Source: Escherichia coli (lineage in GTDB: Bacteria; Pseudomonadota; Gammaproteobacteria; Enterobacterales; Enterobacteriaceae). Taken from it: a DNA stretch of 64,000 nucleotides. The notes beneath the pieces are model-generated. The model had not been told where the DNA came from and did not search any database. It was given only the letters and a program-made list of their open reading frames with translations. Positions 23,428 to 55,133 of the stretch are shown in pieces (position 1 is the first letter of the stretch; every line of letters begins with the position of its first letter). The stretch lies in assembly GCF_030013595.1 (NCBI RefSeq), contig NZ_CP122768.1, one strand, 5' to 3'. Both the position numbers and the translations under genes were made by a program.

Positions 23428-23667
23428 ATTCTTACTCAGAAATTATCATTTAACTTACGGAAAATTGTTAAGGCACTCCCGATATTAGCTCCGGAGGATT
23501 TTCCACAACTCCGGGACTGTTAACATATTTCTGCCTGCCATATATACATTGAATTTAGTCATAACAGTCAATACCAGAATTACAGGAATGCGATGCCGAT
23601 ACGCTGGTTATTGAATACTGGTAGCCCCTGAGCACTAATTCATCACGATACTCTGTATTTACTGTTT

Positions 23668-36275: not shown

Positions 36276-38366
36276 ATGCGAATAACCACTCTGGCTTCCG
36301 TAGTCATTCCCTGTCTCGGATTTTCAGCCAGCAGCATAGCTGCTGCAGAGGATGTGATGATTGTCTCGGCATCCGGCTATGAGAAAAAGCTGACTAACGC
36401 AGCCGCCAGTGTTTCTGTGATTAGCCAGGAGGAATTGCAGTCCAGCCAGTACCACGATCTGGCGGAGGCTCTGAGATCAGTAGAGGGTGTGGATGTTGAA
36501 AGTGGTACGGGTAAAACCGGAGGGCTGGAAATCAGCATCCGAGGAATGCCAGCCAGTTACACGCTGATACTGATTGATGGTGTTCGTCAGGGCGGAAGCA
36601 GTGACGTGACTCCCAACGGTTTTTCTGCCATGAATACCGGGTTCATGCCCCCTCTGGCCGCCATTGAGCGTATTGAGGTTATCAGGGGGCCGATGTCCAC
36701 ACTGTATGGCTCTGATGCGATGGGCGGTGTGGTGAATATCATTACCAGAAAGAATGCAGACAAATGGCTCTCTTCCGTCAATGCAGGGCTGAATCTGCAG
36801 GAAAGCAACAAATGGGGTAACAGCAGCCAGTTTAATTTCTGGAGCAGTGGTCCCCTTGTGGATGATTCTGTCAGCCTGCAGGTACGCGGTAGCACACAAC
36901 AGCGTCAGGGTTCATCGGTCACATCACTGAGCGATACAGCAGCCACGCGTATTCCTTATCCCACGGAGTCACAGAATTATAATCTTGGTGCACGTCTTGA
37001 CTGGAAGGCGTCGGAGCAGGATGTGCTCTGGTTTGATATGGATACCACCCGGCAGCGTTATGATAACCGGGATGGGCAACTGGGGAGTCTGACGGGGGGA
37101 TATGACCGGACCCTGCGCTATGAGCGAAACAAAATTTCAGCTGGCTATGATCATACTTTCACCTTCGGAACATGGAAATCGTATCTGAACTGGAACGAGA
37201 CAGAAAATAAAGGTCGTGAGCTTGTACGCAGTGTACTGAAGCGCGACAAATGGGGGCTTGCCGGTCAGCCGCGGGAGCTTAAGGAATCGAACCTTATCCT
37301 GAATTCATTACTGCTTACCCCTCTGGGAGAATCTCATCTGGTTACGGTGGGGGGCGAGTTTCAGAGCTCGTCCATGAAAGACGGAGTTGTCCTTGCCAGC
37401 ACAGGTGAAACTTTCCGGCAGAAAAGCTGGTCGGTATTTGCTGAGGATGAGTGGCATCTCACGGATGCACTTGCGCTGACTGCGGGCAGCCGCTATGAAC
37501 ATCATGAGCAATTCGGGGGACACTTCAGTCCGCGTGCATATCTGGTCTGGGATGTGGCAGATGCCTGGACGCTGAAAGGCGGTGTGACCACGGGATATAA
37601 GGCACCCAGAATGGGGCAGCTACATAAAGGGATTAGTGGTGTGTCCGGGCAGGGAAAAACAAATCTACTTGGTAACCCCGACCTGAAGCCGGAAGAGAGC
37701 GTCAGTTATGAGGCTGGGGTGTATTACGATAACCCCGCCGGTCTGAATGCCAATGTCACAGGTTTTATGACTGACTTCTCCAACAAGATTGTCTCTTATT
37801 CCATAAATGATAACACCAATAGCTATGTAAACAGCGGAAAGGCCCGGTTGCACGGTGTGGAATTTGCCGGCACATTGCCGCTGTGGTCAGAGGATGTCAC
37901 GCTGTCACTGAATTACACCTGGACCCGAAGTGAACAACGTGATGGTGATAACAAAGGTGCGCCGCTGAGTTATACCCCTGAACACATGGTGAATGCGAAA
38001 CTGAACTGGCAGATCACCGAAGAGGTGGCATCATGGCTGGGTGCCCGTTATCGCGGGAAAACACCACGTTTCACCCAGAATTATTCGTCACTGAGCGCTG
38101 TACAGAAGAAAGTGTATGATGAGAAAGGAGAATACCTGAAAGCCTGGACGGTGGTGGATGCAGGTCTGTCGTGGAAGATGACGGATGCCCTGACGCTGAA
38201 TGCTGCGGTGAATAACCTGCTCAACAAGGATTACAGTGACGTGAGCCTGTACAGTGCCGGTAAGAGTACGCTGTATGCCGGTGATTACTTCCAGACGGGA
38301 TCATCAACAACAGGATATGTGATACCTGAGCGAAATTACTGGATGTCGCTGAACTATCAGTTCTGA
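36276..38366 (+). CDS. iha: TonB-dependent outer-membrane siderophore receptor / adhesin (IrgA homologue adhesin)
   Basis: 696 aa; signal peptide; plug-domain and 22-strand barrel features; C-terminal ...YWMSLNYQF aromatic end; length and sequence match recalled Iha. Confidence 0.8.
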   Translation: MRITTLASVVIPCLGFSASSIAAAEDVMIVSASGYEKKLTNAAASVSVISQEELQSSQYHDLAEALRSVEGVDVESGTGKTGGLEISIRGMPASYTLILIDGVRQGGSSDVTPNGFSAMNTGFMPPLAAIERIEVIRGPMSTLYGSDAMGGVVNIITRKNADKWLSSVNAGLNLQESNKWGNSSQFNFWSSGPLVDDSVSLQVRGSTQQRQGSSVTSLSDTAATRIPYPTESQNYNLGARLDWKASEQDVLWFDMDTTRQRYDNRDGQLGSLTGGYDRTLRYERNKISAGYDHTFTFGTWKSYLNWNETENKGRELVRSVLKRDKWGLAGQPRELKESNLILNSLLLTPLGESHLVTVGGEFQSSSMKDGVVLASTGETFRQKSWSVFAEDEWHLTDALALTAGSRYEHHEQFGGHFSPRAYLVWDVADAWTLKGGVTTGYKAPRMGQLHKGISGVSGQGKTNLLGNPDLKPEESVSYEAGVYYDNPAGLNANVTGFMTDFSNKIVSYSINDNTNSYVNSGKARLHGVEFAGTLPLWSEDVTLSLNYTWTRSEQRDGDNKGAPLSYTPEHMVNAKLNWQITEEVASWLGARYRGKTPRFTQNYSSLSAVQKKVYDEKGEYLKAWTVVDAGLSWKMTDALTLNAAVNNLLNKDYSDVSLYSAGKSTLYAGDYFQTGSSTTGYVIPERNYWMSLNYQF

Positions 38367-38440: not shown

Positions 38441-38879
38441 AGGTTAAGTGCATTTCCGATCCGCTAATGAGATTTCGTTACCAACAACTAATATCGTCAC
38501 AGGAAATGCACGGATTATTTTTAACTTATCATTTACATACTTGTCCAGAGTGTAAGCGCACCGTGAAGGACGTGGGGTAAAAATTAGTTTACAGAGAGAG
38601 TGACGTTCCAGGGCAACAACTCTTTCATGCGGTTGGCAGGCCAGGTGTTGATTACACTGATCACGTGGCGTAGCCACGTTTCCGGCTCGATTCCGTTAAG
38701 TTTTGCAGCTACCGATCAGGCTGTACATCACTGCCGCACTATCGCTCGTCATCTCAAAGTCCGGTCTCGTCAGCAGGAAGGTATCATTCTCTCCCGCCAT
38801 TTTTCCAGGGGCCCGGTCAGATAAGTCCCTTTGTCTATCGCTGACTCCTGACTCATAACCCGGTTAGCAGAATGCAGGG

Positions 38880-39266
38880 TCACCACCTCGCCACGACCAA
38901 ATCCAAATAAGTCAATTGCACCTTCTCAATCGCCATTTTGTCAGTAAGCGTACAGCCTGAACTGATGGTATCTTCACCATCAATGACAACGGTGATCGCA
39001 ATTTTACTGACGTTCGCCGGAACACGATCCAGTGCTATCTCAATGCTGGCCTGCTGCGAACCGGTAACGAGCCTGACTGCCCCCTCAGGAGAAGACAAAT
39101 TATTATAAAAGATAAAGTCAGAATCGCCACTGACCTTTCCCTGAGCATTAAGCATGAACAGGCAGGTATCGGGTTCGCCTTTAAAGCCGGATTTGGCAGG
39201 GTACTGAAGATTCAGCCTGATCGTAGATTGCTGAAGGGGTATGTTTTGTCCGGATTGTAAATTCAT
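38880..39266 (-). pseudogene. terF: TerF-like TerD-domain protein, truncated (N-terminal 128 codons only)
   Basis: MNLQSGQNIPLQQSTIRLNLQYP... parallels the TerA N-terminus; ORF is far shorter than a full ter-family protein of this type and is followed by non-coding debris. Confidence 0.5.
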
Positions 39267-39646
39267 ATTAACTCTCCTGATTTTTGATTATTATTAATGC
39301 GCAGCGTTTATATATGTTCCCTAGGCTTAGTTCTGGACGCTGGATATTCGGTGAGGCGTAAATATGGTATGACACCATTTTTCATAACGCTGAAGTTTCT
39401 ATACCTGTTGAATTTGAATTTTCATTGACCGGGTATCTTATTTTCCAGGGCCCGTTCCTTCATAAGTCGCAAAAGTAACATATATCCGAAGGGCATGCTG
39501 TTGATATCAGACACGGAATACTGGCTTTAACCAGCAACCACAGATAAACCCGGGGCCTGCATAAAAGGTTCATGCCAGAATTAACATAGCTCTGCTTTCT
39601 GCCCCCCCCTTTCCCATATTCACCCGTTGATAGCGGATCGATACCC

Positions 39647-39671
39647 AAAAAAAACCCCGGCATTGCCGGGG
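39647..39671 (-). terminator. Rho-independent terminator after terE
   Basis: On minus strand: GC-rich hairpin CCCCGGCAATGCCGGGG followed by TTTTTTTT, 17 bp after the terE stop. Confidence 0.7.
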
Positions 39672-39687
39672 TCAGACTCAGCGTCTT

Positions 39688-40263
39688 TTAGACATTGACG
39701 CCGTGCTGGGAAGCAAGCGCTGACAGACCACCGGCAAAACCCTGGCCAACAGCTTTAAACTTCCACTCAGTACCATGGCGATACAGTTCACCGAAGACCA
39801 TTGCGGTTTCGGTTGAGGCGTCTTCAGACAGATCGAAACGGGCAATTTCCGTCCCGTTGTCGTTGTTGTAAACGCGCATGAAGCTGTTGCTCACCATGCC
39901 GAAGTTTTGTTTACGCGCTTCTGCATCATAGATGGTAACGGCAAATACCAGTTTTTTGATGTCTGCTGAGACTTTGGTCAGATCGATTTTGACCTGCTCA
40001 TCGTCGCCGTCGCCTTCACCGGTACGGTTGTCGCCCTGGTGCTCTACTGCGCCATCAGGGCTGGTTTTATTATTGAAGAAAATGAAATGGGCATCTGACA
40101 GTACTTTACCGTCTTCACCTACTGCGAATACGGAAGCGTCCAGATCAAAACCCTGACCATCGGTTACACGGGCATCCCAGCCCAGGCCAACCATAGCGAC
40201 ATTCATGGTTGGTGCTTCTTTGGTCAGAGATACGTTGCCGCCTTTTACGAGAGAAACTGCCAT
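39688..40263 (-). CDS. terE: Tellurium resistance protein TerE (TerD domain)
   Basis: Start at [18 protein letters not shown]; TerD-domain paralogue directly after terD. Confidence 0.8.
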
Positions 40264-40331
40264 TTTTAGCTCCTGCAAACAGTTGAATGAGGCTGAATTA
40301 ACAGCCCCAGATATGAAAAGTTACTTTTCGA

Positions 40332-40910
40332 TCAGGACGCGTTAATGCCGTACTGAGCACATACAGATGCCAGACCACCAGCATAACCCTGGCCTACTGC
40401 GCGGAATTTCCACTCACCATTGTGGCGATACAGCTCGCCGAACAGCATGGCAGTCTCAGTGGACGCATCTTCGGTCAGATCGTAGCGAGCGACTTCAGTC
40501 TGGTTATCGTCATTAACCAGACGAATAAACGCACCGGATACCTGACCAAAGCTCTGGCGACGAGCCTGAGCATCGTGGATGGTCACAACGAAGATGATCT
40601 TGTCAACTTCAGACGGGACGGCGTCCAGTTTAATTTTCAGCGATTCATCATCACCATCGCCCTCACCGGTGCGGTTATCGCCGGTGTGCGTTACGGAACC
40701 GTCGGATGACGTCAGGTTGTTATAGAAGATGAAATCTGAATCGCCGCGCACTTTGCCGTTTGAGGCCAGCAGGAATGCTGAAGCATCCAGGTCAAAGTCC
40801 TGACCGTCTGTTGAACGCGCATCCCAGCCAAGGCCCACCAGGACATTTTTCATTGACGGAGCTGCTTTACTCAGGGAGACGTTCCCGCCTTTGGAAAGAG
40901 AAACACTCAT
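40332..40910 (-). CDS. terD: Tellurium resistance protein TerD
   Basis: 192 aa [32 protein letters not shown]...; canonical TerD. Confidence 0.85.
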
Positions 40911-40958
40911 AAAATAACCTCTTCGATTAGTAATTGTTCAGGTTAACACTTAAGGGGA

Positions 40959-41999
40959 TTAACTCCCCTTTTCCTCAGATTCAGGTTTGCCCGGGAACAT
41001 GACGCTTGCGAGAATGCCCAGCGCCAGTACACCCAGTACAACATACAGGCTGGTTGTTGCCGCGATGCTGTAACCATGATGCCAGATGTGATCGGTCGCA
41101 TTCAGGCCGAGTTTTGCCGCGATGAAGAACAGCAGCACGATAACGGCCTTCTCCAGATGAACCAGGTACTGTTTCAGTGCCTCAAGGACAAAATACAGAG
41201 TACGCAGGCCCAGGATAGCAAACATCATGGCACTATAGACGATAAGCGGTTCACGACTGACGGCAATGATTGCCGGTACCGAGTCAAACGCGAACATTAC
41301 GTCCGAGAGTTCAACCACAGCCACACACAGGAACAGCGGGGTCGCATACAGCGCCGCTTTTTTACCACGGCCAATGGTGACATCGCTGTTTTCTGGTTTC
41401 GCCAGTTCAGCATCCACTTCCTTCTGGTTAAGTAGGAAGGCATGCCCTCTGAGCTTCGGCCAGATAGGGAAGAAGCGTTTAACCATACGGTAAGCCAGAT
41501 GCTGGGAGTAATCCTCAATTTCATCATCGTCATCACCGCTTTTAAGCATCATGACCGCCGTCCAGGCAACGATAATAGCGAAGACAACTTCAACGTACGG
41601 CCCCAGACTCAGCAGGCTCGTACCGATGGCGACAAAGATGCCCCTGAAGACGATGGCACCAATGATCCCCCAGTAGAGAACACGGTGGCGATAACGATCC
41701 GGAACGGCGAACCAGGAGAAGATTGCCATCATGACGAACAGGTTATCGACCGACAGCACTTTCTCCAGCGCATAACCCGTGACAAACAGACTGGCAACCT
41801 CAGCACCGTGGTGGATATAGAGGAAACCGGCAAATGCCATCGCAACCACAACCCAGAATACGGACCAGAGCGCAGCACTCTTCAGCGAGATTGGCTTGTC
41901 ATCACGGTGCATAAACAGGTCAATAAAGATGGCACCGACTGAAAGCGCAATAAAAACAATGACCGTTTCAGTCGGGAAGCCGATGTGTGTGGAAACCAT
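40959..41999 (-). CDS. terC: Tellurium resistance integral membrane protein TerC
   Basis: 346-aa multi-pass membrane protein in terB-terC-terD order. Confidence 0.85.
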   Translation of the reverse strand: MVSTHIGFPTETVIVFIALSVGAIFIDLFMHRDDKPISLKSAALWSVFWVVVAMAFAGFLYIHHGAEVASLFVTGYALEKVLSVDNLFVMMAIFSWFAVPDRYRHRVLYWGIIGAIVFRGIFVAIGTSLLSLGPYVEVVFAIIVAWTAVMMLKSGDDDDEIEDYSQHLAYRMVKRFFPIWPKLRGHAFLLNQKEVDAELAKPENSDVTIGRGKKAALYATPLFLCVAVVELSDVMFAFDSVPAIIAVSREPLIVYSAMMFAILGLRTLYFVLEALKQYLVHLEKAVIVLLFFIAAKLGLNATDHIWHHGYSIAATTSLYVVLGVLALGILASVMFPGKPESEEKGS

Positions 42000-42021
42000 A
42001 TTTTACCCTTAGGGATGTGGA

Positions 42022-42477
42022 TCAGAGGCCAAATTCAGCCGGGTCGAAGCCCAACGCGATAGCGATCTCGCGGGAGGCCAGTTTCTCGTCCTGATCGAAG
42101 TTACCGTCACTTTTCGCAACGGCAATACCAACACGTAAGGCCAGCTGAGCGGCCTCAGGCTGATCTTTCAGCGCCAGGATGTATTTCATGGTTTCGCCCT
42201 TGCCAATTTCAACATCGAAATCGAAGCTTGAAACCAGTTTATTGAAGAACTCAATCACCTCATTGGTATCGAAGACCTTCAGCTCTTCTGAAGAGCGCAG
42301 AAAGCCCATCATTTTCTGCTTTTCTTCCGAACTTACGCCGTCACTCGATACGGCAATACGGGCACATACAGCAACGGTGCCCTGCATGAATTTTTTGTTT
42401 TTGAAACGGCCAACCTGGCGGGTCAGTTCGTCACGGCCTGAGTTAATGGCACCTTTAACTTTGTCGAAAAAGCTCAT
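42022..42477 (-). CDS. terB: Tellurium resistance protein TerB
   Basis: Start at MSFFDKVKGAINSGRDELTRQV (151 aa); track ORF is extended upstream into the terA 3' end. Confidence 0.8.
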   Translation of the reverse strand: MSFFDKVKGAINSGRDELTRQVGRFKNKKFMQGTVAVCARIAVSSDGVSSEEKQKMMGFLRSSEELKVFDTNEVIEFFNKLVSSFDFDVEIGKGETMKYILALKDQPEAAQLALRVGIAVAKSDGNFDQDEKLASREIAIALGFDPAEFGL

Positions 42478-42499
42478 ACCTGTTTCCTTTGTTGCTGTG

Positions 42500-43657
42500 T
42501 TATTTAGAACCGGCGCTCCAGCGAAATCCCCAGCCAAATGCCCGGTCCATTTCGTCCTGGCCTTTGAAGTACTGGTTAATTCGCTCGACTTTAATTGCGC
42601 CGTTTTCGTTTACGAGTCTGGCAATGGCGCACAATGTGCGACGGTTCTCACCTTCGGTCAGGCGGGTCTCAATGGGCGGTTGATCCGGCACATGAATGGT
42701 GACTACACCATCAGTCTTGTCCCAGCTGGGAACACCTTCATAAATAAAGGCGTAAATCAGCACTTCGCGGATATGCTTCCATTCACGTCCATTGATATGC
42801 AGCCACTCGCCGTCTGATACATCACCCGTCCGGTCATCGCCCTTGAGCTGAACATACGGTTCATCGCGATAATCACCGAATGCATTACCGAGCGCCTGAA
42901 TGACCGATTTATACCCGTCCTGAAGCTCAACAAAGGCCCCCAGATCCAGGTCGATTCCTTTGGAGCCGAACATACCTGCAAAGCCTGATTTGCTACTGCC
43001 CCGGTGCCAGTTCAGGTTGATCCGGATTTCACCGAAGTTATCCCGTTTGGTCAGGCTGATTGCAGGCTTCTCTTTTGTCAGCGATACCTTGCTCAGGCTG
43101 ATTTTTGTCTCAACTGGCGGAGGGGTTACAACCGGAGGAGTTGGGGCTGCGGGAGCCGGTTCGTCGGCAATATTTACGCCGAAATGCTCTGCCAGCGGTT
43201 TAAGTCCACCGTTGAACCCCTGCGCAACGAAGCGGAATTTCCAGTCATTATTACGACGGTAAAATTCCCCCAGAATTAAGGCTGCTTCCTGACGGCCGCT
43301 CAGTTCGACACTGCCGCTAACCAGGCCGGTAGCCCCTTGCTCCACGTCGATGGAAAGATTACGAAGACCGGACACCGTCTGCCCACCGTCACAGGTCACG
43401 GTGAACGCAATTTTCTGGACATCAGGTTTCAGCCGGTTGAGCGCGACAGTAAAGGTTGAGTACTGGCCTTCACTGACCAGGCTGACGGTACCATCATCGT
43501 TACGTGGCTGACCATAAAACACCATGTCCGCATCACCCTGCACCTTCCCGTCGGCATACAGGCGAAACGCCGAAGCATCCACCTGGCCGCCCGAGGTGAT
43601 CCGGACCCGCAACTCCTGGGCTGGAACGGGGGCATTGCCCCCCGGCGTCAGGTTCAT
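42500..43657 (-). CDS. terA: Tellurium resistance protein TerA (double TerD-domain protein)
   Basis: 385 aa; start overlaps terZ stop by 1 nt. Confidence 0.8.
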   Translation of the reverse strand: MNLTPGGNAPVPAQELRVRITSGGQVDASAFRLYADGKVQGDADMVFYGQPRNDDGTVSLVSEGQYSTFTVALNRLKPDVQKIAFTVTCDGGQTVSGLRNLSIDVEQGATGLVSGSVELSGRQEAALILGEFYRRNNDWKFRFVAQGFNGGLKPLAEHFGVNIADEPAPAAPTPPVVTPPPVETKISLSKVSLTKEKPAISLTKRDNFGEIRINLNWHRGSSKSGFAGMFGSKGIDLDLGAFVELQDGYKSVIQALGNAFGDYRDEPYVQLKGDDRTGDVSDGEWLHINGREWKHIREVLIYAFIYEGVPSWDKTDGVVTIHVPDQPPIETRLTEGENRRTLCAIARLVNENGAIKVERINQYFKGQDEMDRAFGWGFRWSAGSK

Positions 43658-44238
43658 TAGCGAATAACCGCTGAAACGATATCGGAGTGCATATCGTCAA
43701 TTGTGCGGCCGCGACAGGCATGGCCAAGGGCGGTAAAGTCCCAGTTGCCGTTATTACGGCGCAGCGAAGAAATAACGATCCCGGTATGTGAGCCCTGCTC
43801 AGTCAGCTTGTAGCGAGCCAGCTCTTTGCCGGTTTGATCGACAACGCGGCAGAAAGCGTTTTCGACGTCATTGAACGACTGACCACGGAAGCTGTTTACC
43901 GTAAACGCCAGGTATTCAACGTTTGCAGGCAGGCGGGAGAGGTTGACCTTAATCACTTCATCGTCACCGTCACCCTCACCGGTCAGGTTATCGCCACTGT
44001 GCACAACAGCGCCGCAGGTGGATTTCAGTTTGCGGAACCAGATGGTGTCAATTGTTTTACCTGTGCTGTCCATTAATACACAGCCAGCATCGAGATCGAT
44101 TGAGTCGTTGCCTCCAAACAATCCTCCAAGAAGACCTTTTTTCTTAACCGGATCCCAACCGAGACCGAAATGAAGCTGGCTTAATGCAGATGATTCTTTG
44201 CTGAGTGATACCGTCTGGTTCTTAACTAATGAAACCAT
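43657..44238 (-). CDS. terZ: Tellurium resistance protein TerZ (TerD domain)
   Basis: 193 aa MVSLVKNQTVSLSKESSALSQLHFGLGWDP...; first gene of the operon, divergent from the biosynthetic cluster. Confidence 0.8.
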   Translation of the reverse strand: MVSLVKNQTVSLSKESSALSQLHFGLGWDPVKKKGLLGGLFGGNDSIDLDAGCVLMDSTGKTIDTIWFRKLKSTCGAVVHSGDNLTGEGDGDDEVIKVNLSRLPANVEYLAFTVNSFRGQSFNDVENAFCRVVDQTGKELARYKLTEQGSHTGIVISSLRRNNGNWDFTALGHACRGRTIDDMHSDIVSAVIR

Positions 44239-44560
44239 GTTTTATTCCTTAAAATGGTAATGACCGAGACAATCAAAGGTATATTTAGTAACTGACGAAG
44301 AAAATCATATCATGATGAAGTTCTCTGACAAGGGAAATTTTTGTGGTTTTCTGTAAAAACACAAAAAGAAATCCTTTTCAGGGTGTTAGTTTTTCTATTT
44401 TTAATTTAAATATCAATGTGTTATAAGGAATCCAAAAAACACTGACGCACTCCATAACCACAGGAGTTATTAATCATATTATGATTGACATGTAGCTTAG
44501 ACACTCATAGACTCACTTCTCAATCATAAATTTGCATGGCGTTCCGGATAATTAAAAAAA

Positions 44561-45619
44561 ATGAACAAGAAAATTTGGTTTATGGAAGGTTTATCCTCCC
44601 AGCGAGATATTATTCAGGGGGTAAAATCATTTGCACAAAAAAATAATTTTGCCATTACCGTTTTTGCCTCCCACCGTAACGAAAGAAATGAAATCCTTTC
44701 CGTTGCCGATTATTCTTTGACTGAACCTGAAGATCCTCAAAAACGTCTTCAGTTTATCCAGGAAACCATTCAGACCTACGGCATCCACCATATTCATACT
44801 GGCCGTAACAGCCAGTGGTTTGAAGAACACCGTTCAGCCATTGAACCGACCGGTGCCACCCTTACTACCGGTGCAACGGGCGTCGACTGGTTAACTCTGG
44901 CTGACGAAAAAGTTACTTTTGCTCAGTTTATGGAGCAAAAGGGTCTCCCGGTCGTACCATCCTGGCGGGTGAATACGCTGGCAGAATTAAAGACACACCT
45001 CGCGGCCCCGCCGTTCACTGACAGCCCGGTATGCGTGAAGCCGGTGACGGGTATCTATGGCATGGGATTCTGGCGCTTTGATGACAGTGCTTCGCCTATG
45101 GCCGTCTTTAATCATCCCGAACATCGTCTGGTCAGTCCGCAACAGTATATTGCAGCAGCATCAGCTGCTGAGTCGTTTAAACCCCTTGTTTTGATGCCGT
45201 ACCTGCCAGGCCCGGAATTTTCCGTCGATATCCTCGCGGATAAGGGCGAAATACTCGCAGCCGTGGGACGCCGTAAGGAAGGGGCTATCCAGTATCTGGT
45301 AAACGAAGGAAGCGCCTGGGAACTGGCGTGTGACTGCGCCCGTGTTATGAAGGCCGACGGGCTGGTGAATGTTCAGACGCGAAACGATGTGAATGGCAAC
45401 CCGGTGCTGCTTGAAACCAACATGCGTCCGTCAGGGGGGGTGGGTTATACCCTTCACAGCGGTGTGAACCTTCCTGGGTTATTTGCTGCCTTTAAGCTCG
45501 GTCTGATGTCTGAAGATATGGTACGCCAGAGCGCTAAAAACACCTTTTCTCCGGTTGCGGTGAGATCCATTACGGATGTAATTGCATACCCGGAATCACT
45601 CTCTAACCTTCTGAATTAA
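44561..45619 (+). CDS. ATP-grasp family enzyme (ter-linked biosynthetic cluster)
   Basis: 352 aa; first gene of a tightly packed plus-strand cluster divergent from terZ; ATP-grasp call is from overall pattern and the ter-linked context described by comparative genomics. Confidence 0.55.
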   Translation: MNKKIWFMEGLSSQRDIIQGVKSFAQKNNFAITVFASHRNERNEILSVADYSLTEPEDPQKRLQFIQETIQTYGIHHIHTGRNSQWFEEHRSAIEPTGATLTTGATGVDWLTLADEKVTFAQFMEQKGLPVVPSWRVNTLAELKTHLAAPPFTDSPVCVKPVTGIYGMGFWRFDDSASPMAVFNHPEHRLVSPQQYIAAASAAESFKPLVLMPYLPGPEFSVDILADKGEILAAVGRRKEGAIQYLVNEGSAWELACDCARVMKADGLVNVQTRNDVNGNPVLLETNMRPSGGVGYTLHSGVNLPGLFAAFKLGLMSEDMVRQSAKNTFSPVAVRSITDVIAYPESLSNLLN

Positions 45620-45628
45620 GGCGTATTT

Positions 45629-46771
45629 ATGTCTGATATCCTCGAAGATATGATTTATCGCCGTACCCTCTCATGCGGTACGATTCAGGTAACCCGTGAC
45701 CAGGGTGAAGTTTCGCTCGATGACCTGTTTGACATCGCTGAAAGACGTAACCCGAAACGCGCCTTTCTGTTTGTCAGCAAAGTACTCGGCAGGCACATTC
45801 CCGTGCCACCCTCAGTCATGCGGCAGGCCTACAGACAGCTTGCCAGCCAGTTCCCCTCGACACTGACAGGACCCGTACTGTTTATCGGTATGGCTGAAAC
45901 CGCCGTTGGGCTTGGGGCCGGTGTATTTGATGAAGTGCGCCACCAGCATCGTGAATCTGTCTATCTGACCTCTACCCGTCACCCGGTTGATGGCACGTTG
46001 CTTTGCGAGTTCAAGGAAGAACACAGCCACGCCACCGATCATCTGATCTATCTGCCAGATGATGAAGAGAAAAGACGTCGTGTTACCAACGCACGAACGC
46101 TGGTTTTGATTGATGACGAGGCAACCACCGGTAATACCTTTATTAACCTGCTTTCTGCCCTGCGTAATACCGGCAAGCTTCAACATATTGAACAGGTTAT
46201 CGCCGTAACGCTGACCGACTGGAGTGGCAATGCCCTGTCGGAGCGCACCCCCTTGCCCGTCACTTCGGTTTCGCTTGTAAGCGGTCAGTGGGGATGGACC
46301 CCATTACCTGATGCACCTGTCCCGGACATGCCGAAAGTCAACGTAACTTCACGAGGAGAATGGGACATCCAGGGGAAACAGTCATGGGGCCGACTGGGGA
46401 TGCTCGCACCTGCGGCCGATCTCGGCCATGAGGTCTCCGTCCACAAGGGGGAACGTATTCTGGTTCTCGGGACCGGGGAATTCGTCTGGGAGCCGTTCCT
46501 GCTTGCTGAACGGCTCGAAGCTGCCGGAGCACAGGCATTTTATGGATCGACCACCCGCTCCCCTGTCGCCGTTGGTTATGCCATTGAGTCCGCCATTTCC
46601 TTTACGGATAACTACGGGCTGGGCATCCCCAATTTTGTCTATAACGTCGCCCACCAGCAGTTTGACCGCATTCTTGTGTGTACTGAGACACCCGCAGAAA
46701 GTATTGACACGCAGCTTCTTAAAGCGCTGGCTGAGGTTGCGCCCGTCGTGGAGATTGTTACCTATGAATAA
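45629..46771 (+). CDS. Phosphoribosyltransferase-like protein (ter-linked cluster)
   Basis: 380 aa; PRPP-binding-type motif LVLIDDEATTGNT. Confidence 0.6.
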   Translation: MSDILEDMIYRRTLSCGTIQVTRDQGEVSLDDLFDIAERRNPKRAFLFVSKVLGRHIPVPPSVMRQAYRQLASQFPSTLTGPVLFIGMAETAVGLGAGVFDEVRHQHRESVYLTSTRHPVDGTLLCEFKEEHSHATDHLIYLPDDEEKRRRVTNARTLVLIDDEATTGNTFINLLSALRNTGKLQHIEQVIAVTLTDWSGNALSERTPLPVTSVSLVSGQWGWTPLPDAPVPDMPKVNVTSRGEWDIQGKQSWGRLGMLAPAADLGHEVSVHKGERILVLGTGEFVWEPFLLAERLEAAGAQAFYGSTTRSPVAVGYAIESAISFTDNYGLGIPNFVYNVAHQQFDRILVCTETPAESIDTQLLKALAEVAPVVEIVTYE

Positions 46772-47537
46772 ACCCGTTGTTCTGAGCGACCTTGACGACA
46801 CGCTCTTTCAGACCCGTCGTAAAATGGTGGACGAGCTGGCCCTGGAGCCATTCCGTACCGGTGCCGTTGATCGCACCCTGAATCCACGAAGCTTTATGAC
46901 GGAAGAACAGTCCATGTTGGTGGACTGGCTCCTGGAGCAGGCTGAACTCATACCCGTTACCGCACGGGGAACTGAAGAAATCAGCCGCGTACGGATCCCT
47001 TTCCACTCCTGGGCAATCACAACGCACGGGGCCGTCATTCTCACGCCTGAAGGCAAACCCGACGAGGAGTGGAAGGCCCATATGCTCGGCCAGCTGGCTC
47101 CCTACCAGGAAAAGCTGACATCGATGCAGCGTCTGATCACTGAAATGATGGACGCAAAAGGAATCAATGCCTGGGCAAGGCTGAACTTCGAATACGGTGA
47201 AACGGCGGTTTATATGGTGATGAAACACCGCGACAGCACCCGCCTTGACGAGCTCAATGCCATTGCAGATGAGATAGAAACGGTGTTTCCGACCGAGGGC
47301 TTCTACATCCACCGCAACAGTAATAACGTGGCCTGGCTTCCCACCCCGGTTGAGAAAGGGCTGGCAGTCAGCTGGCTGCTTGAAAAACTTCGGGCTGAAC
47401 GAGGAGTTTTCCCCGTAATTGGTTTGGGCGACAGCCTGAGCGATCATCGTTTTATGAAACTGTGCAGCTGGTTTGGCATCCCGCGTCAGAGTCAGTTTGC
47501 AGATGCCATTTCACAGCGAATTTTTGGAGAAAATTAA
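46764..47537 (+). CDS. HAD-superfamily hydrolase (ter-linked cluster)
   Basis: Start MNKPVVLSDLDDTLF carries the HAD motif I (DxDxT); ATG at 46764 overlaps upstream stop; track ORF 46428-47537 is an upstream over-extension. Confidence 0.65.
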   Translation: MNKPVVLSDLDDTLFQTRRKMVDELALEPFRTGAVDRTLNPRSFMTEEQSMLVDWLLEQAELIPVTARGTEEISRVRIPFHSWAITTHGAVILTPEGKPDEEWKAHMLGQLAPYQEKLTSMQRLITEMMDAKGINAWARLNFEYGETAVYMVMKHRDSTRLDELNAIADEIETVFPTEGFYIHRNSNNVAWLPTPVEKGLAVSWLLEKLRAERGVFPVIGLGDSLSDHRFMKLCSWFGIPRQSQFADAISQRIFGEN

Positions 47538-47538
47538 A

Positions 47539-48618
47539 ATGCAGCCACATGAAACATTTACCGGCTCATACCAGCCCGGTGACGTGGAATTTCTGCTAAA
47601 GCCGGTTGTCATTGAGATGACGCCGGTTGAGAAAAAAGAAGAACTGATTCAGTCCGGGAAGAAACATTATTCGGACATGCTCAGCCAGGAGCCAGCGCCT
47701 ACACAATGGCATCTTGATTTGTTTCACCGGGCGCTGGATCGGGGCGCAGAGAGGCTTGCAAAAGAAGTCACACAGCTCGCTATTGCTCTGGCCGAACGCT
47801 TCGGTGATGAGCCCATTGTACTGGCCAGTCTTGTCAGGGCTGGCGTTCCGCTCGGCGTTATGCTGCACCAGGCCCTGCGTGACATGGGGAAAACCTCATG
47901 GCATTACGGTATCAGCATTATCCGGGATCGTGGAATTGACGGTGCAGCCCTCGACGTCATTGAAGAGCGGCATGGTACCAGCGGTATTGTCTTTGTTGAC
48001 GGATGGACAGGTAAAGGCGCAATTACCGGAGAGCTTGTACGCGCACTGAAAGATCGCCCGGGCTATCCTGAGCAGCCGCGACTGGTTGTCCTGGCCGATC
48101 CCTGTGGCTGCTCCTGGCTTGCAGCCAGTGATGATGACTGGCTCATTCCTTTTGGCATCATGGGGGCGCCGGTATCAGGCCTGATCTCCCGGTCAGTATG
48201 GTCCTCTGAAGGATTACACGGGTGCATGGTTTGCGAGCATCTCAGTGAATTCGAATGCAGCCGGATGCTTGCCGATACCGTCGCTCATTTCCGTAAGAAG
48301 TTAACACCGTCATCCCTCGCTCCCCTGAGCTGGAATACGGAATCAGCCCGGGTCTTATGGCAGACAAGTCGCGACGTTATCGCGTTCCTGGCCGATGAAT
48401 TTAAAGTGGACAGCGTCAATCGTATTAAACCCGGTATTGCTGAAGCAACCCGGGCTGTATTACGTCGGGTACCGGACCATGTATTTGTGCGTTCTATTGA
48501 CGACCCGGACGTTGCCTTGCTTGTAGGGCTTGCTCGTGAAAAGGGAATAGTTGTTACAGAAATGGGGGGAACCCTCGGCCAGTATCGGGCTGTAACCATT
48601 ATCAAGAAGGTACTCTGA
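47539..48618 (+). CDS. Second PRTase-like protein (ter-linked cluster)
   Basis: Start MQPHETFTG preceded by GGAGA; PRTase-like motif IVFVDGWTGKG; stop overlaps next start. Confidence 0.5.
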   Translation: MQPHETFTGSYQPGDVEFLLKPVVIEMTPVEKKEELIQSGKKHYSDMLSQEPAPTQWHLDLFHRALDRGAERLAKEVTQLAIALAERFGDEPIVLASLVRAGVPLGVMLHQALRDMGKTSWHYGISIIRDRGIDGAALDVIEERHGTSGIVFVDGWTGKGAITGELVRALKDRPGYPEQPRLVVLADPCGCSWLAASDDDWLIPFGIMGAPVSGLISRSVWSSEGLHGCMVCEHLSEFECSRMLADTVAHFRKKLTPSSLAPLSWNTESARVLWQTSRDVIAFLADEFKVDSVNRIKPGIAEATRAVLRRVPDHVFVRSIDDPDVALLVGLAREKGIVVTEMGGTLGQYRAVTIIKKVL

Positions 48619-49574
48619 TGAAAAATCGTCTTTCTCCCTGGAATCTGGGAGCCACGCTATACATGCCTGCAACACGGGAAGATATTGCTGATGCCGTCCT
48701 GCACGGGAAAATCCCGGGCTTGCGCTCTCTGGTGATTTGCCTGGAGGATGCTGTCAGTGAAGCAGACATCCCCGTCGCCCTCAAAAATCTGGAGCACCTG
48801 CTGCACGAGCTCAGTAACAGCATGAGTAGCCTGGGTAAAAATGACTGGCCTCTGGTGTTCATTCGCCCCCGGCATGCCGAAATGGGCAGATGGTTAAAAG
48901 CGCATTATGATCTTTCCGCTGTCGACGGGTTTGTGCTGCCTAAATTTACCCTCAGTTCGTTAGCTGAATGGTGGGATATCATGGTCGGGACTCACCTGTG
49001 CATGATGCCAACGCTGGAAACAGAAGATGTCTTTGACGTGGTTCAGATGCGCGAGCTGGCTACCCGTCTGGAGGAACATCCCTGCCACGACCGCATTATT
49101 GCGCTTCGAATCGGCGGCAACGATCTTATGAACGTTGTGTCGCTTCGCCGTCCCCGGGACCTGACGCTGTATGACAGCCCGATGGGCTACGTCATCAAAA
49201 TGCTCGTTTCGGTCTTCGGCCCGCGTGATTTTGCCCTGACCGCGCCTGTATGTGAGCATATTGACGATCATGCCGTTATGGCCAGAGAGCTGGCTCTTGA
49301 TATGGCACACGGGCTTGTTGGGAAAACGGCCATTCACCCGGGTCAGATAGAGGTCATTCAAAACGCGCTGATGGTCACTCAGGGTGAGCATTCTGACGCT
49401 CTGCGGATCCTGAACTCTACCCAGGCCGTGTTTAAGTCGCAGGGAGCAATGTGTGAACCCGCCACACATCGCCGCTGGGCGGCTGGCATTCTGGACAGGG
49501 CTCGTTTTTATGGGTTACAGAACGAGCAAAGCGCTGATGGAATCAGATTACTTACCGTGACCCAGCATCATTAA
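48618..49574 (+). CDS. HpcH/HpaI aldolase / citrate-lyase beta-subunit-like protein (ter-linked cluster)
   Basis: 318 aa; TIM-barrel lyase-like pattern; translationally coupled to upstream gene. Confidence 0.55.
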   Translation: MKNRLSPWNLGATLYMPATREDIADAVLHGKIPGLRSLVICLEDAVSEADIPVALKNLEHLLHELSNSMSSLGKNDWPLVFIRPRHAEMGRWLKAHYDLSAVDGFVLPKFTLSSLAEWWDIMVGTHLCMMPTLETEDVFDVVQMRELATRLEEHPCHDRIIALRIGGNDLMNVVSLRRPRDLTLYDSPMGYVIKMLVSVFGPRDFALTAPVCEHIDDHAVMARELALDMAHGLVGKTAIHPGQIEVIQNALMVTQGEHSDALRILNSTQAVFKSQGAMCEPATHRRWAAGILDRARFYGLQNEQSADGIRLLTVTQHH

Positions 49575-49584
49575 GGAAATCATA

Positions 49585-50793
49585 ATGGGGTTCAGGTTCA
49601 GAAAGTCGATCAACATTATTCCTGGCGTTCGCCTCAACCTGAGTAACGGTGCACCGAGCCTGAGTGTCGGGCCGAGAGGTGCTTCCGTTTCTTTTGGTAG
49701 CCGGGGGACCTATGCCAATCTGGGCTTGCCCGGTACCGGGCTGAGTTACCGTACCCGGCTTGACCGGGCCGCGCGTTCCAGAGGTGAAAACCGGACGGCA
49801 ACCGACCCGGGGCTCAGACAGGCGCTTGAGCAGAAAGCCGCTGAACTCATGTCAGCGGTAACCGCAATCCGTAATATTCACGAGCTGACGCCGGATCCAA
49901 AAACAGGCATCAGCTGGGCAGAGCTGGAAGCAGTATACCTGCATAACAGAACGTCGCCTTTTCAGGTTCCGGCACCGGTGCGTCCAGAAAAGCCAGACTA
50001 CCTTGTATTGCCGGAAAAGCCTGCCGAGAGCGAAGGCATTAGTTTTTTGGGTAAATGGTTTGAATCGGAATCAGCTAAAGCTGAGCGCCACGCCGAAAAT
50101 CTTCGCCGGTGGCAGCAGGAGCTGATTGATGTGGAGCGTGAGAATACCCTTCGACAGCACCGGTACCAGCAACAACGGACGGCCTGGGCCGAACAGTATG
50201 CAAACTGGAAGTTTGAAGCTGAAGAACATGAAAAACGGCTCGCCACGGCTCAGGCAGATGCCCGGCAGCAGTTCCGGACAGACGCCGCGTTTTTCGAATC
50301 ATACCTGGCGGGTGTGCTGGCAGAAACTGAATGGCCGCGTGAAACGCTTGTTGCATTTGAAGTAAAGCCGGAGCTATCAGCAGTCCTGCTGGACGTTGAT
50401 TTAGCTGAGATTGAAGATTTCCCTGATAAGATTTACGGCGTTAATGCCCGGGGAACGGAGCTGACGGAAAAAGCCATGACGCAAAAAGCCGTACGCGAAA
50501 ACTATGCCCACCACGTCCATGGCTGCTTGTTCCGCCTGGTCGGTATCGTTTTACATACGCTACCTTTCGACAACGTGATTGTGTCAGGCTTTACGCAACG
50601 GGTCAGTAAGCGGACCGGCTATCTGGAGGATGAGTATATCCTGTCCTGCAAATGCACTCGCAGCCAGATGTCGTCAGTAAATTTTGCAGGCATAAAACAC
50701 ATTGATCCGGTTGAAGCGTTAGGCGATCAACCGGTTATTCGAAAGATGAGCAGTACCTTCATTTTTCAGCCTATTGAACCACTAACCCTTTAA
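49585..50793 (+). CDS. DUF4236-domain protein
   Basis: 402 aa; N-terminus MGFRFRKSINIIPGVRLNLSNGAPSLSVGPRGASVSFGSRG is the DUF4236 signature. Confidence 0.6.
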   Translation: MGFRFRKSINIIPGVRLNLSNGAPSLSVGPRGASVSFGSRGTYANLGLPGTGLSYRTRLDRAARSRGENRTATDPGLRQALEQKAAELMSAVTAIRNIHELTPDPKTGISWAELEAVYLHNRTSPFQVPAPVRPEKPDYLVLPEKPAESEGISFLGKWFESESAKAERHAENLRRWQQELIDVERENTLRQHRYQQQRTAWAEQYANWKFEAEEHEKRLATAQADARQQFRTDAAFFESYLAGVLAETEWPRETLVAFEVKPELSAVLLDVDLAEIEDFPDKIYGVNARGTELTEKAMTQKAVRENYAHHVHGCLFRLVGIVLHTLPFDNVIVSGFTQRVSKRTGYLEDEYILSCKCTRSQMSSVNFAGIKHIDPVEALGDQPVIRKMSSTFIFQPIEPLTL

Positions 50794-50810
50794 GCAGGCT
50801 AAATCTTACG

Positions 50811-51278
50811 ATGCAATTAAATACCAGACAGGCCCGGATTTTTAAGCTTGCCAACTTACTGGGCACCGGCAAGCCCGTTTCCGCTGCCGACATTATAACC
50901 AGTCTGGAATGCTCTGAGCCGACATTAACCCGGGCCCTCAAAGAGCTACGCGAGTCATATTCTGCGGAGATCAAATACAGCAAGGCAGGTCATTCCTATC
51001 ATCTCGTTAATCCGGGCCAGTTGGATAAAAAGACCCTCCGCCGGATGAATGAAGCGCTCGCACAGAATGCTGAACTGAAAACCGGTGAGTCCACAGGGAA
51101 GGTCGTACTCGATAAGGATAAAAAAACAGCCGTGTCATTATCGCTACGCATGCGGATTCTAAGAAAAATTGACCGTCTGGCTGCGCTGAGTGACTCGACC
51201 CGAAGTGAAGCGGTAGAGAAGCTGGCTCTGCACTCCGTTGATGAACTGATAAAAGAATACAGCGCTAAAAAGTCCTGA
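50811..51278 (+). CDS. terW: TerW-like winged-helix regulator
   Basis: 155 aa, HTH-like N-terminus; size and position at the end of the ter-linked cluster fit recalled TerW. Confidence 0.45.
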   Translation: MQLNTRQARIFKLANLLGTGKPVSAADIITSLECSEPTLTRALKELRESYSAEIKYSKAGHSYHLVNPGQLDKKTLRRMNEALAQNAELKTGESTGKVVLDKDKKTAVSLSLRMRILRKIDRLAALSDSTRSEAVEKLALHSVDELIKEYSAKKS

Positions 51279-51360
51279 CGCTAAATCTCAGACCGGGGTG
51301 AAAACTCCGGTTTTGTCATATTTCACCTCTGTATTGGCGTGATGCAAAATGGCATCTGAA

Positions 51361-51538: not shown

Positions 51539-51868
51539 ATGTCAAAACCCCGATGGACGCTTGATCAGAAAAAACATCACGTTGCCGCATGGCGCGCCAG
51601 CGGCCTTACCCGTGAACAGTACTGTGAACTTTACGACATTCCGTTTAAATCCCTGCGCCAGTGGCCGCAGGATGTCGCAAAAGCCGAAAAACGAGCCAGA
51701 GCACCAGAAATTATTCCTGTTTCAGTATCTGGCTCTTCCGGAATGACTGATGGCAGACCATTGTCGGATGAGCCTGTCACTCTCTTCCTGCCCGGTGGTA
51801 TCCGGATGTGCTGCCAGCCTTCTCAGTTAACCGATGTTTTCCGGGCTCTTCGCCATGCTGACGCCTGA
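51539..51868 (+). CDS. IS66-family accessory protein orf1 (outer copy)
   Basis: 109 aa MSKPRWTLDQKKHHVAAWRASGLTREQYCELYDIPFKSLRQW (HTH). Confidence 0.65.
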   Translation: MSKPRWTLDQKKHHVAAWRASGLTREQYCELYDIPFKSLRQWPQDVAKAEKRARAPEIIPVSVSGSSGMTDGRPLSDEPVTLFLPGGIRMCCQPSQLTDVFRALRHADA

Positions 51869-52235
51869 TAACGTATTCCTGGTCGTAAAACCCGTCGATA
51901 TGCGCCGGGGTATCGACACACTGACACAGTACGTCCAGAACGAACTTAACGCTGCATGGCATGACGGTGCTGCTTTTGTCTTCACCAATAAAGTCCGCTC
52001 CCGCATAAAAGTTCTCCGGTGGGACAAACATGGCGTATGGCTGTGTACCCGACGACTGCACCGGGGAAGCTTCCGCTGGCCCCGGAAAGGTGATGCCACA
52101 TGGCATCTCACACAGGATGAGTTTCACTGGCTGGTCTTTGGGGTTGACTGGCAACAGGTGAAAGGGCATGACCTGGCAAAATGGGTATACCAGGAAGAAC
52201 CCGAAGATGCTCAGAGCAACGCAATAACTCAATGA
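51834..52235 (+). CDS. IS66-family TnpB-like orf2 (outer copy)
   Basis: ...LVVKPVDMRRGIDTL...VLRWDKHGVWLCTRRLHRGSFRWP parallels other IS66 orf2 copies. Confidence 0.65.
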   Translation: MFSGLFAMLTPDNVFLVVKPVDMRRGIDTLTQYVQNELNAAWHDGAAFVFTNKVRSRIKVLRWDKHGVWLCTRRLHRGSFRWPRKGDATWHLTQDEFHWLVFGVDWQQVKGHDLAKWVYQEEPEDAQSNAITQ

Positions 52236-52277
52236 AATATAATGAATATCCATGCGTGATGTCATATAATCCACCGC

Positions 52278-53108
52278 ATGGATATCTCGCTTCTCAGTAC
52301 CACCAGTGACCCTGAACAGCTTCGCGCTCTGGCAATTGCCATGGTGCAAAAAGTCATGGCTGAGAATGCAGAACTTCAGAACCGTATCCGCATCCTGGAA
52401 GAGCAGATGAAGCTCGCACGCCAGCAGCGTTTCGGTAAAAAATGCGAATCGCTGGCCGGGATGCAGCGTTCCCTGTTCGAAGAGGATGTTGACGCGGATA
52501 TCGCAGAAATCTCGGCGCATCTGGACAAACTGCTTCCTCAGACCGGGGACGAAGAAAAAACAACAACACGTCCTGTTCGTAAGCCCTTGCCTTCACCTCT
52601 TCCCCGTGCTGAAAAGGTTATCCCGCCAGCTGAGGAACGTTGTCCTGACTGTGATGCCCCCCTGCACTTCATTCGCGATGAAGTCAGCGAGAAGCTGGAA
52701 TATATTCCGGCACAGGTCGTGGTCAACCGCTATATCCGCCCGCAGTACAGCTGTCCCTGCTGTGAGAAAGTGTTCAGCGGAAAAATGCCGGCACATATCC
52801 TTCCGAAAAGTGCTGTTGAGCCATCGGTCATCGCACAGGTTGTCATCAGCAAATATACCGACCATCTGCCCCTGTATCGCCAGCAGCACATTTTCTCCCG
52901 AATGGGGGTGGAGCTCCCCGTCAGTACAATGGCGGATATGGTCGGTGTTGCTGGCGCTGCACTGGCCCCGCTGGCAAAATTGTTACGCCACGAGCTTCTG
53001 ACACGGGATGTTATTCATGCAGATGAAACGTCCCTGAGGCTCCTTGATACCCGGAAAGGCGGTAAATCCTGCTCCGGCTGGCTGTGGGCTTACGTCAGCG
53101 GAGAAAGA
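52278..53108 (+). pseudogene. IS66-family transposase TnpC, N-terminal part (interrupted by nested IS66)
   Basis: Cys-rich region CPDCDA...CPCCEK; reading frame runs into the nested element's terminal repeat at 53109. Confidence 0.7.
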
Positions 53109-53138
53109 GTAAGCGTCAACGGAGCACCGTATTGACGC

Positions 53139-54752: not shown

Positions 54753-54782
54753 GACCGTTTTTATAATCCGGCCATGACATTT

Positions 54783-55133
54783 TTACAACATTGTCAGTGC
54801 ATTAAGGCGGGATGTTTTGGGCTGACGCCAGTCCAGTTTATCGAGGAGCATTGCCAGCTGCGAGCGGGTAATGGATACCTTACCGTCACGCACCGCAGGC
54901 CAGATAAACTGGCCTTCCTCCAGACGTTTGGTGAACAGGCACAGACCATCAGCATCAGCCCACAGAATTTTAATCGTGTCACCCCGTCGGCCGCGAAAGA
55001 TAAACAGGTGACCGGAGAAGGGGTTCTCATCCAGCACATGTTGTACCTGTTCTCCCAGACCGTTGAAGGATTTACGCATATCAGTAACGCCGGCAACCAG
55101 CCAGATTCGAGTGCCTGATGGGAGCGAGATCAT
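54783..55133 (-). CDS. IS66-family TnpB-like orf2 (nested copy)
   Basis: 116 aa MISLPSGTRIWLVAGVTDMRKSFNGL... Confidence 0.8.
   Translation of the reverse strand: MISLPSGTRIWLVAGVTDMRKSFNGLGEQVQHVLDENPFSGHLFIFRGRRGDTIKILWADADGLCLFTKRLEEGQFIWPAVRDGKVSITRSQLAMLLDKLDWRQPKTSRLNALTML

Follow-up and report, generated by a model that had tools for sequence, protein, structure and literature searches.

A ter locus, in which five conserved enzymes are encoded beside the ter operon, lies at positions 38880-51278 of a 64,000-nucleotide stretch of Escherichia coli DNA (contig NZ_CP122768.1 of RefSeq assembly GCF_030013595.1), the whole of which we refer to as the window. Selective media that rely on tellurite to isolate O157 and other Shiga-toxin E. 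coli depend on the ter locus, which has also been linked to gut fitness and virulence in Klebsiella. An earlier note on this DNA, drawn from its letters and open reading frames (ORFs), described a terZABCDE operon with a truncated terF, divergent from a seven-gene biosynthetic cluster that ends in a regulator gene. Our analysis makes it quite probable that this is a ter module of the TAI/OI-43/48 (O-islands 43/48) type controlled by TerW, in which a nucleoside-like compound made by the enzymes is used by the Ter proteins. What is new here is modest: two conserved palindromes in the promoter region, and evidence that a gene encoding a DUF4236 protein is an accessory one.

The locus is the ter module, associated with resistance to tellurite, phage and colicins, of the genomic island of E. 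coli of the TAI (tellurite-resistance and adherence island)/OI-43/48 type. The iha gene (36276-38366) adjoins ter on the left, the urease genes ureG/F/E (62126-63894) lie downstream, and the island is rich in insertion sequences (ISs); iha and ter have been located on OI-43/48 of enterohaemorrhagic E. coli (PMC3064760). Over 13.1 kb around the locus the chromosomes of E. coli UMNK88, O145 and O157:H7 are 100% identical to the window, the RefSeq annotation of an identical genome gives the same genes, directly preceded on the left by iha and flanked on the right by IS66 elements, and collinearity with the UMNK88 island, on which lie cah, a dynamin/RdcB/patatin trio, iha, ter, IS66 copies, L31B, hok and urease genes, extends over the whole 64 kb. 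At least 80% of the 13.1-kb locus is present in 948 of 5426 complete E. coli genomes, or about one in six, and according to the literature identical loci are the basis for the tellurite selection of O157 and O145 strains. The locus is therefore already known rather than new, because its DNA is identical to that of many genomes that have been sequenced and annotated, and the gene-neighbourhood link between ter and the enzyme cluster has been in print since 2012. For the same reasons – the presence of this DNA in hundreds of annotated genomes and the neighbourhood inference of 2012 – the window provides no new handle on the product.

We compiled the gene set from the ORF list and translations, using precomputed Pfam matches on identical proteins together with NCBIfam and Pfam scans. 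All 14 genes are intact ORFs at the places recorded for them, seven on the minus strand and seven on the plus strand, and they form two divergent transcription units, terZABCDE running to a strong terminator and seven packed genes running to a hairpin after terW. The minus-strand genes follow one another in the order terZ (43657-44238; 193 aa), terA (42500-43657; 385 aa), terB (42022-42477; 151 aa), terC (40959-41999; 346 aa), terD (40332-40910; 192 aa) and terE (39688-40263; 191 aa), with the terZ stop codon overlapping the terA start by 1 nt. TerZ, TerA, TerD and TerE all match PF02342 (RefSeq calls the last two terD and TerD family protein), TerB matches PF05099 and is assigned to the TerB family in RefSeq, and TerC is an integral membrane protein of the TerC/Alx family (PF03741). 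An intrinsic terminator, GACCCCGGCAATGCCGGGGTT followed by TTTTTT, lies on the same strand at 39673-39653, 15 nt past the terE stop codon, and with a 9-bp stem containing seven G-C pairs and a run of six T residues it is a strong one; an Rfam scan of the locus gave no family beyond weak small-RNA-like matches that reflect this hairpin. ORFs, Pfam matches and hairpin thus agree with the six-gene minus-strand operon and terminator proposed from the letters.

The plus-strand genes begin across a spacer of 322 bp (44239-44560), which the earlier note had put at 320 bp. The first encodes an ATP-grasp enzyme, ATPgrasp_Ter (44561-45619; 352 aa; PF15632), which also matches an NCBIfam carbamoyl-phosphate-synthase-like model at E 2.5e-12, and the second (45629-46771; 380 aa) a phosphoribosyltransferase (PRTase) joined to a TRSP domain (PRTase_2, PF15609, with PF12500) that carries a canonical-looking loop for phosphoribosyl pyrophosphate (PRPP), VLIDDEATTGNT. 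The third product is a HAD-superfamily phosphatase (46764-47537; 257 aa), the fourth a StiP–PELOTA_1 protein (47539-48618; 359 aa; PF11202, formerly PRTase_1, with PF15608), and the fifth an HpcH/CitE-like C-C bond lyase (48618-49574; 318 aa; PF15617) with matches to RipC and CitE in NCBIfam and to citrate lyase 3qll in the PDB at E 0.003. The NCBIfam matches of proteins other than TerC, to ATP-grasp, HAD-IIB, CitE/RipC and HTH models, are weak. Sequence searches of the PDB for structural relatives of TerW, StiP, PRTase_2, the lyase and the ATP-grasp protein gave none or only marginal ones. Each enzyme assignment of the earlier note survives profile search or annotation, with some adjustment of the HAD call: its motifs are intact (DLDDT for DxDxT, VTARG, and GDSLSD for GDxxxD), but the profile matches are weak, the best being to the HAD-IIB MPGP family of NCBIfam at E 1.5e-8, below the cut-off, and there is no precomputed Pfam match, with a scan giving weak Trehalose_PPase and S6PP matches only. 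The overlapping start and stop codons that had been described hold for two plus-strand junctions, PRTase_2/HAD (8 nt) and StiP/lyase (1 nt), and not for the remaining junctions, where the genes are 1-17 nt apart.

ATPgrasp_Ter, PRTase_2-TRSP, StiP-PELOTA_1 and C-C_Bond_Lyase genes, adjacent to one another and divergent to ter, make up the type of cluster described by Anantharaman, Iyer and Aravind in 2012, and the order of the five enzymes (ATP-grasp, PRTase_2-TRSP, HAD, StiP-PELOTA and C-C lyase) is kept in every one of the eight enterobacterial lineages compared; the last four of them are also found in a distant metagenomic ter locus. For such clusters it has been proposed that the PRTases and the HAD phosphatase make a nucleoside or nucleotide derivative, which is sensed by TerB and TerD with TerC answering at the membrane (PMC7824862, PMC11994780 and PMC8115787, citing Anantharaman 2012). 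The background given in the earlier note, a link of ter to a cluster for a nucleoside-like metabolite and to phage and stress resistance, is in keeping with this literature, as relayed from Anantharaman 2012 in PMC8115787, PMC7824862 and PMC12054061. Applied to the window, the proposal would have the five enzymes build a small nucleoside-like compound, with a PRTase coupling a base to PRPP, the HAD enzyme stripping the 5′ phosphate, and the ATP-grasp protein and lyase attaching or modifying a side group that bears a carboxylate. The compound would then be sensed or used by the membrane protein TerC and by TerD and TerB, which are Ca2+/ligand-binding proteins, and the resulting change in the envelope or in metal-ion status would lessen stress from tellurite, oxidants, metals and phage.

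Our analysis also bears on the control of the locus. The spacer contains one good promoter-like site in each direction, at 44331-44304 on the minus strand for terZ and at 44485-44513 on the plus strand for the enzyme operon. We aligned it across the eight lineages – the window, a Citrobacter plasmid, a Klebsiella plasmid, Yersinia entomophaga, Pectobacterium, Pantoea, an Erwinia-like metagenome contig and Chania – and found it to be diverged almost throughout except for two blocks. Box 1 (44301-44315; AAAATCATATCATGA; 15 nt) is invariant in all eight and, in the promoter of terZ, falls on the extended -10, TGnTATGAT. Box 2 (44474-44489; TCATATTATGATTGAC) is invariant at 14 of its 16 positions and contains the palindrome AATCATA-T-TATGATT, which both adjoins and overlaps the -35 of the enzyme-operon promoter, TTGACA; the -10 of that promoter, TAGACT, is likewise conserved across the lineages. 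Both boxes contain the palindrome ATCAT-N3-ATGAT (ATCATA-N-TATGA). A 12-mer, ATCATAWYATGA, occurs at exactly two sites, the two boxes, in each of the ten TerW-bearing loci searched (L001-L006 and L008-L011, about 20-26 kb each), and its only exact matches in the 64-kb window are likewise Box 1 and Box 2; it is absent from one distant ter locus that has no TerW. Neither the box motif nor the logic of one repressor coupling both operons was found in the searchable literature. The boxes bear to our knowledge no convincing likeness to the sites of Fur, Zur, NikR, ArgR, LexA or other global regulators.

A candidate to bind these sites is the product of the last plus-strand gene (50811-51278; 155 aa), described previously as a TerW-like regulator. 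It is indeed a regulator, and more exactly TerW itself, with 98% identity to the named protein. The family, in which we found 235 proteins, is apparently confined to the Enterobacterales. TerW is predicted to consist of a winged helix-turn-helix followed by a C-terminal two-helix module resembling ribbon-helix-helix (RHH) proteins: in an AlphaFold2 model (pLDDT 89) a winged helix of three helices and a beta-hairpin spans residues 1-70 and is followed by a long helix and then by a C-terminal extended segment and two helices, the model resembles winged-helix regulators of the MarR/ZitR type in Foldseek (probability 1.0, E about 3e-3), and a Pfam scan gives weak HTH_11, RHH_1 and HicB-like matches. 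Regulation of the ter operon by TerW is noted in PMC12054061 (its ref. 42), which also cites a report of TerW binding to the ter promoter region (Valkovicova 2011), and TerW is reported to protect against the lethality of terZA (PMC4633105). We therefore regard Box 1 and Box 2 as shared candidate TerW operators. By binding both, TerW would hold down expression of the Ter proteins, whose uncontrolled production is toxic, and would repress the enzyme promoter as well, and as terW is the last gene of the enzyme operon it would therefore repress itself too. A broader proposal, which we advance tentatively and with the expectation that it may well need revision, is that the palindromes are TerW operators through which an autoregulated repressor couples both operons and is released by the nucleoside-like product or by a stress signal, with DUF4236 a separate rider of mobile-element or phage conflict in some ter loci. 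The palindrome pair also has a practical use, pointing to a ΔterW or box-mutant strain as a means of forcing expression of the enzyme operon for metabolomics.

The fourth plus-strand gene had been taken for a second PRTase-like gene, and this stands insofar as its product belongs to PF11202, the former PRTase_1 family; a PRTase fold is not confirmed by sequence, and the family is reported as a protease. Its present name comes from the Acinetobacter baylyi protein StiP, which is reported to be a protease needed for tellurite resistance and required also for normal morphology (Reichert 2013, as described in PMC11994780). In a family alignment the motif FVDGWTGKGAIT is invariant, at the position corresponding to the PRPP loop, and so are Cys189, Cys229, Cys232, His227 and His234; residues 284-352 give weak L7Ae/S12e matches, which fits the PELOTA_1 domain. 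No sequence relatives of StiP were found in the PDB, and alignment with the PRTase_2 profile (hhalign) gave E 0.21, which is not significant, from shallow profiles whose homologues are all at least 71% identical. The A. baylyi report, the invariant cysteines and histidines and the L7Ae-like C-terminus would together favour an account in which the plus-strand genes are not a small-molecule pathway at all, StiP being a cysteine protease that acts on Ter or envelope proteins and the others modifying proteins or RNA. We consider this improbable, as the family has the invariant P-loop-like motif VDGWTGKG at the PRPP-loop position, StiP always occurs together with a genuine PRTase_2, with a HAD phosphatase and with an ATP-grasp protein, a combination that fits nucleotide chemistry, and its CxxC/H pattern would seem to resemble a metal site more than a catalytic dyad.

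Several points nonetheless weigh against a TerW-controlled module that makes a nucleoside-like compound. We found no product of the enzyme cluster reported in the literature, the proposed chemistry is read from domain families, and the HAD assignment sits below family cut-offs. The reported protease activity of the StiP family, as given in PMC11994780, is not that of a transferase, and sequence comparison does not confirm the PRTase fold. The enzymes are not needed for tellurite resistance, since terZ-F alone confers it (PMC8115787). As to the operators, most of Box 1 falls on a -10 and Box 2 lies next to a -35, so that the conservation of the boxes could partly be promoter conservation, and the protein that binds them could be a host regulator rather than TerW.

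A different account of the module starts from TerC, which falls in the TerC/Alx metal-homeostasis family with a match to TIGR03718 of NCBIfam (E 1e-107, above the cut-off). Klebsiella pneumoniae without terC is less resistant to phage and to Zn(II) and Mn(II), and no inducer of the ter operon in that organism is stronger than Zn(II) (PMC12054061). The locus might on these grounds be chiefly a system for Mn/Zn homeostasis and the envelope that centres on the TerC transporter, with tellurite and phage effects secondary and with enzymes that serve metal handling rather than signalling. We think it somewhat unlikely that this is the principal function, as it leaves unexplained the five nucleotide- or ligase-type enzymes conserved beside ter in eight lineages, and the Rfam scan did not find at the locus the riboswitch type that precedes and controls other TerC/Alx genes. 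A metal-centred role is in any case compatible with the synthesis of a nucleoside-like compound and not exclusive of it.

The sixth plus-strand gene (49585-50793) encodes the 402-aa DUF4236 protein, in which a beta-rich DUF4236 domain at the N terminus is followed by a long helix and then, at the C terminus, by a conserved alpha/beta domain. The Pfam domain is limited to residues 3-56, and the full architecture is kept in a large family, with 309 representatives at E <1e-30 and 7918 at E <1e-3. The earlier note had counted it as one of seven cluster genes; it is present in the window, but is not a core gene, being missing in five of the eight lineages (Yersinia entomophaga, Pectobacterium, Pantoea, the Erwinia-like contig and Chania). 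It follows the lyase gene in E. coli, in the plasmid type of locus, in Klebsiella (64% identity) and in the distant metagenomic ter locus (37%). In Y. entomophaga, decayed stretches corresponding to residues 272-402 can still be recognised in a 319-bp gap (tblastn E 7e-8), and because these remnants remain we conclude that the gene was lost there. Other relatives occur alone in housekeeping contexts or beside a Schlafen/AlbA_2 gene and an integrase, and the N-terminal domain occurs in nine phage protein families. The comparison suggests that DUF4236 is an accessory, dispensable passenger that would stand outside the pathway rather than form a step of it, and on this evidence the gene could be omitted from a reconstitution.

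Two loci with DUF4236 genes merit description for their neighbours. In a ter locus from a JGI metagenome (3300033748, Ga0373171_000035; L012) that has neither an ATP-grasp gene nor TerW, a gene for a Card1-type CARF endonuclease (PF09002; 9263-10438) comes directly after DUF4236 and is followed by a small helix-turn-helix gene and a tyrosine-recombinase-like gene; L013 is the same. The position of a nucleotide-sensing nuclease beside a putative nucleoside-making cluster is suggestive. On a short contig (L015), a Schlafen/AlbA_2-domain gene and then an integrase of phage type come after a stand-alone DUF4236 homologue (1545-2732) that is 35% identical to the protein of the window.

Such neighbours, and the relatives of DUF4236 in phages, bear on the idea, proposed in PMC7824862, that the whole module is an anti-phage defence in which the enzymes make a nucleotide-like alarm signal at infection and the Ter proteins act as membrane effectors; the mapping of phage inhibition to terZ, terC and terD (Whelan 1995, as cited in PMC12054061) points the same way. 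Against this, a scan with PADLOC-DB v2 of ten proteins (the seven plus-strand products, TerZ, TerA and the truncated TerF, with TerB, TerC, TerD and TerE left out) gave marginal matches only, the reported phage effects are modest and concern plaque size only (PMC12054061), and the TerY-PP2C-kinase genes that stand beside plasmid ter are missing in the window. The marginal PADLOC matches were those between TerW and a WYL model (E 3e-5) and between PRTase_2 and a PRTase model (E about 1e-3), and we rejected both as evidence of membership. We regard defence as an unlikely primary purpose of the module.

A closer examination of the edges of the locus indicates how it came to differ from its plasmid relatives. 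The truncated terF gene (terF′; 38880-39266, minus strand) is a TerD-domain pseudogene of 128 aa, and the earlier statement that terF is cut to 128 codons is borne out: plasmid TerF has 413 aa, with a TerD and a vWA domain, and BLASTP gives 90% identity to it over residues 1-108 and none beyond. No intact TerF of that architecture is encoded in the window. Protein homology stops near residue 103, and the final 25 or so codons are derived from the junction. The loss of terF is consistent with published data, because insertions in terE or terF have no phenotype (PMC12054061) and a terW-terZABCDE-ΔF clone reaches the full tellurite minimum inhibitory concentration (PMC11003894). Between the terE terminator and terF′ there is a 420-bp gap (39267-39687) with a 67-codon minus-strand ORF (39460-39663) that is unannotated in RefSeq.

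DNA homology to plasmid ter loci spans only 38961-51342 of the window (12.4 kb, about 98% identity), so that on the right it ends shortly after a terminator-like hairpin that follows terW (51290-51313, plus strand). About 215 bp beyond the terF break lies a remnant of an IS66-family transposase (38552-38745), which is about 97% identical over some 195 nt to a transposase found on many E. coli plasmids and appears in RefSeq as a frameshifted, partial transposase. On the other side an IS66 tnpA begins at 51539, and IS66 genes replace all the sequence past the terW terminator; the TerY-P triad (TerY vWA, PP2C phosphatase and Ser/Thr kinase) is absent from the window. The IS66 elements there are nested (53139-55555 and 51539-53135), an IS682-like element (tnpA/B/C, minus strand) being inserted into the tnpC of another copy. 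The alignments thus indicate that a 12.4-kb piece of a plasmid-type ter locus sits in the island, apparently trimmed on both sides beside IS66-family sequences. Rearrangements beside IS66-family elements may have halved terF on the one side, and an IS66-associated rearrangement may have removed terY/terX and the TerY-PP2C-kinase genes on the other. A composite transposon was considered and ruled out: the window contains no second copy of the remnant that lies to the left of terF, and the flanks therefore do not represent matching IS copies.

Several other features of the island window can be noted. At 4037-8393, on the minus strand, linked genes for a dynamin-family protein (795 aa), an RdcB-family protein (301 aa) and a patatin-like phospholipase (356 aa) have overlapping stops and starts; identified solely by collinearity with the UMNK88 island as annotated in RefSeq, this trio is possibly a membrane-acting conflict module. 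At 18390-20290, also on the minus strand, a gene resembling those for 3′-phosphoadenosine-5′-phosphosulfate reductases overlaps an IbrB-like (ParB/DndB-type) gene, an ibrAB-type pair by collinear annotation only, and by collinearity a PerC-family regulator gene lies nearby at about 18040-18310. Further along the minus strand (20746-24801), in a stretch of about 42-46% G+C, an 893-aa AAA-domain protein is encoded beside a POTRA-domain protein of about 350 aa, whose ORF (23668-24801) has 377 codons from the first possible start. The G+C minimum of the window (0.36) falls at 34001-36000, just upstream of iha, where there are only short hypothetical ORFs and a transposase fragment.

Several known systems can be compared with the locus. 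The closest is the TAI/OI-43/48 of enterohaemorrhagic E. coli O157:H7, shared with O145 and with the porcine enterotoxigenic strain UMNK88, in which the sequence is identical down to the terF truncation and the flanking iha and IS66; the content of the island (cah, iha, ter and ure) is also that of the window, and apart from an additional ISEc20 insertion in some O157 copies nothing of substance differs. The ter loci of large plasmids of Citrobacter, Enterobacter, Klebsiella and E. coli, which we take to be of the IncHI2 R478/pKL53-L type, have about 98% DNA identity and the same order from terF to terW, and the copy that we compared, Citrobacter freundii pRHBSTW-00110_2, has both promoter boxes as in the window. 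Unlike the window, the plasmid locus encodes a 413-aa TerF (vWA-domain-containing in RefSeq) and continues past terW with vWA (terY), TerD-family (terX), TerY-C, PP2C phosphatase and kinase genes.

The ter locus on the Klebsiella pneumoniae plasmid, described as a putative biosynthetic cluster together with terZ-F (Vornhagen 2021; PMC8115787), has the same architecture as the window, including DUF4236, TerW and both boxes, with proteins about 65-77% identical and a different neighbourhood past terW in the copy compared. The chromosomal ter loci of Yersinia, Pectobacterium, Pantoea, the Erwinia-like contig and Chania share terZABCDE, the five enzymes, TerW and both boxes but lack the DUF4236 gene, and those of Pectobacterium and Chania, unlike the window, retain the terY/terX/TerY-C/PP2C/kinase genes. 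Another comparison is with the module of Bacillus as described in PMC11994780, which resembles that of the window in having an HpcH-like lyase, a PRTase, StiP and a HAD protein beside terD/terC, and differs from it in its gene order and in that no ATP-grasp protein, DUF4236 or TerW forms part of that description.

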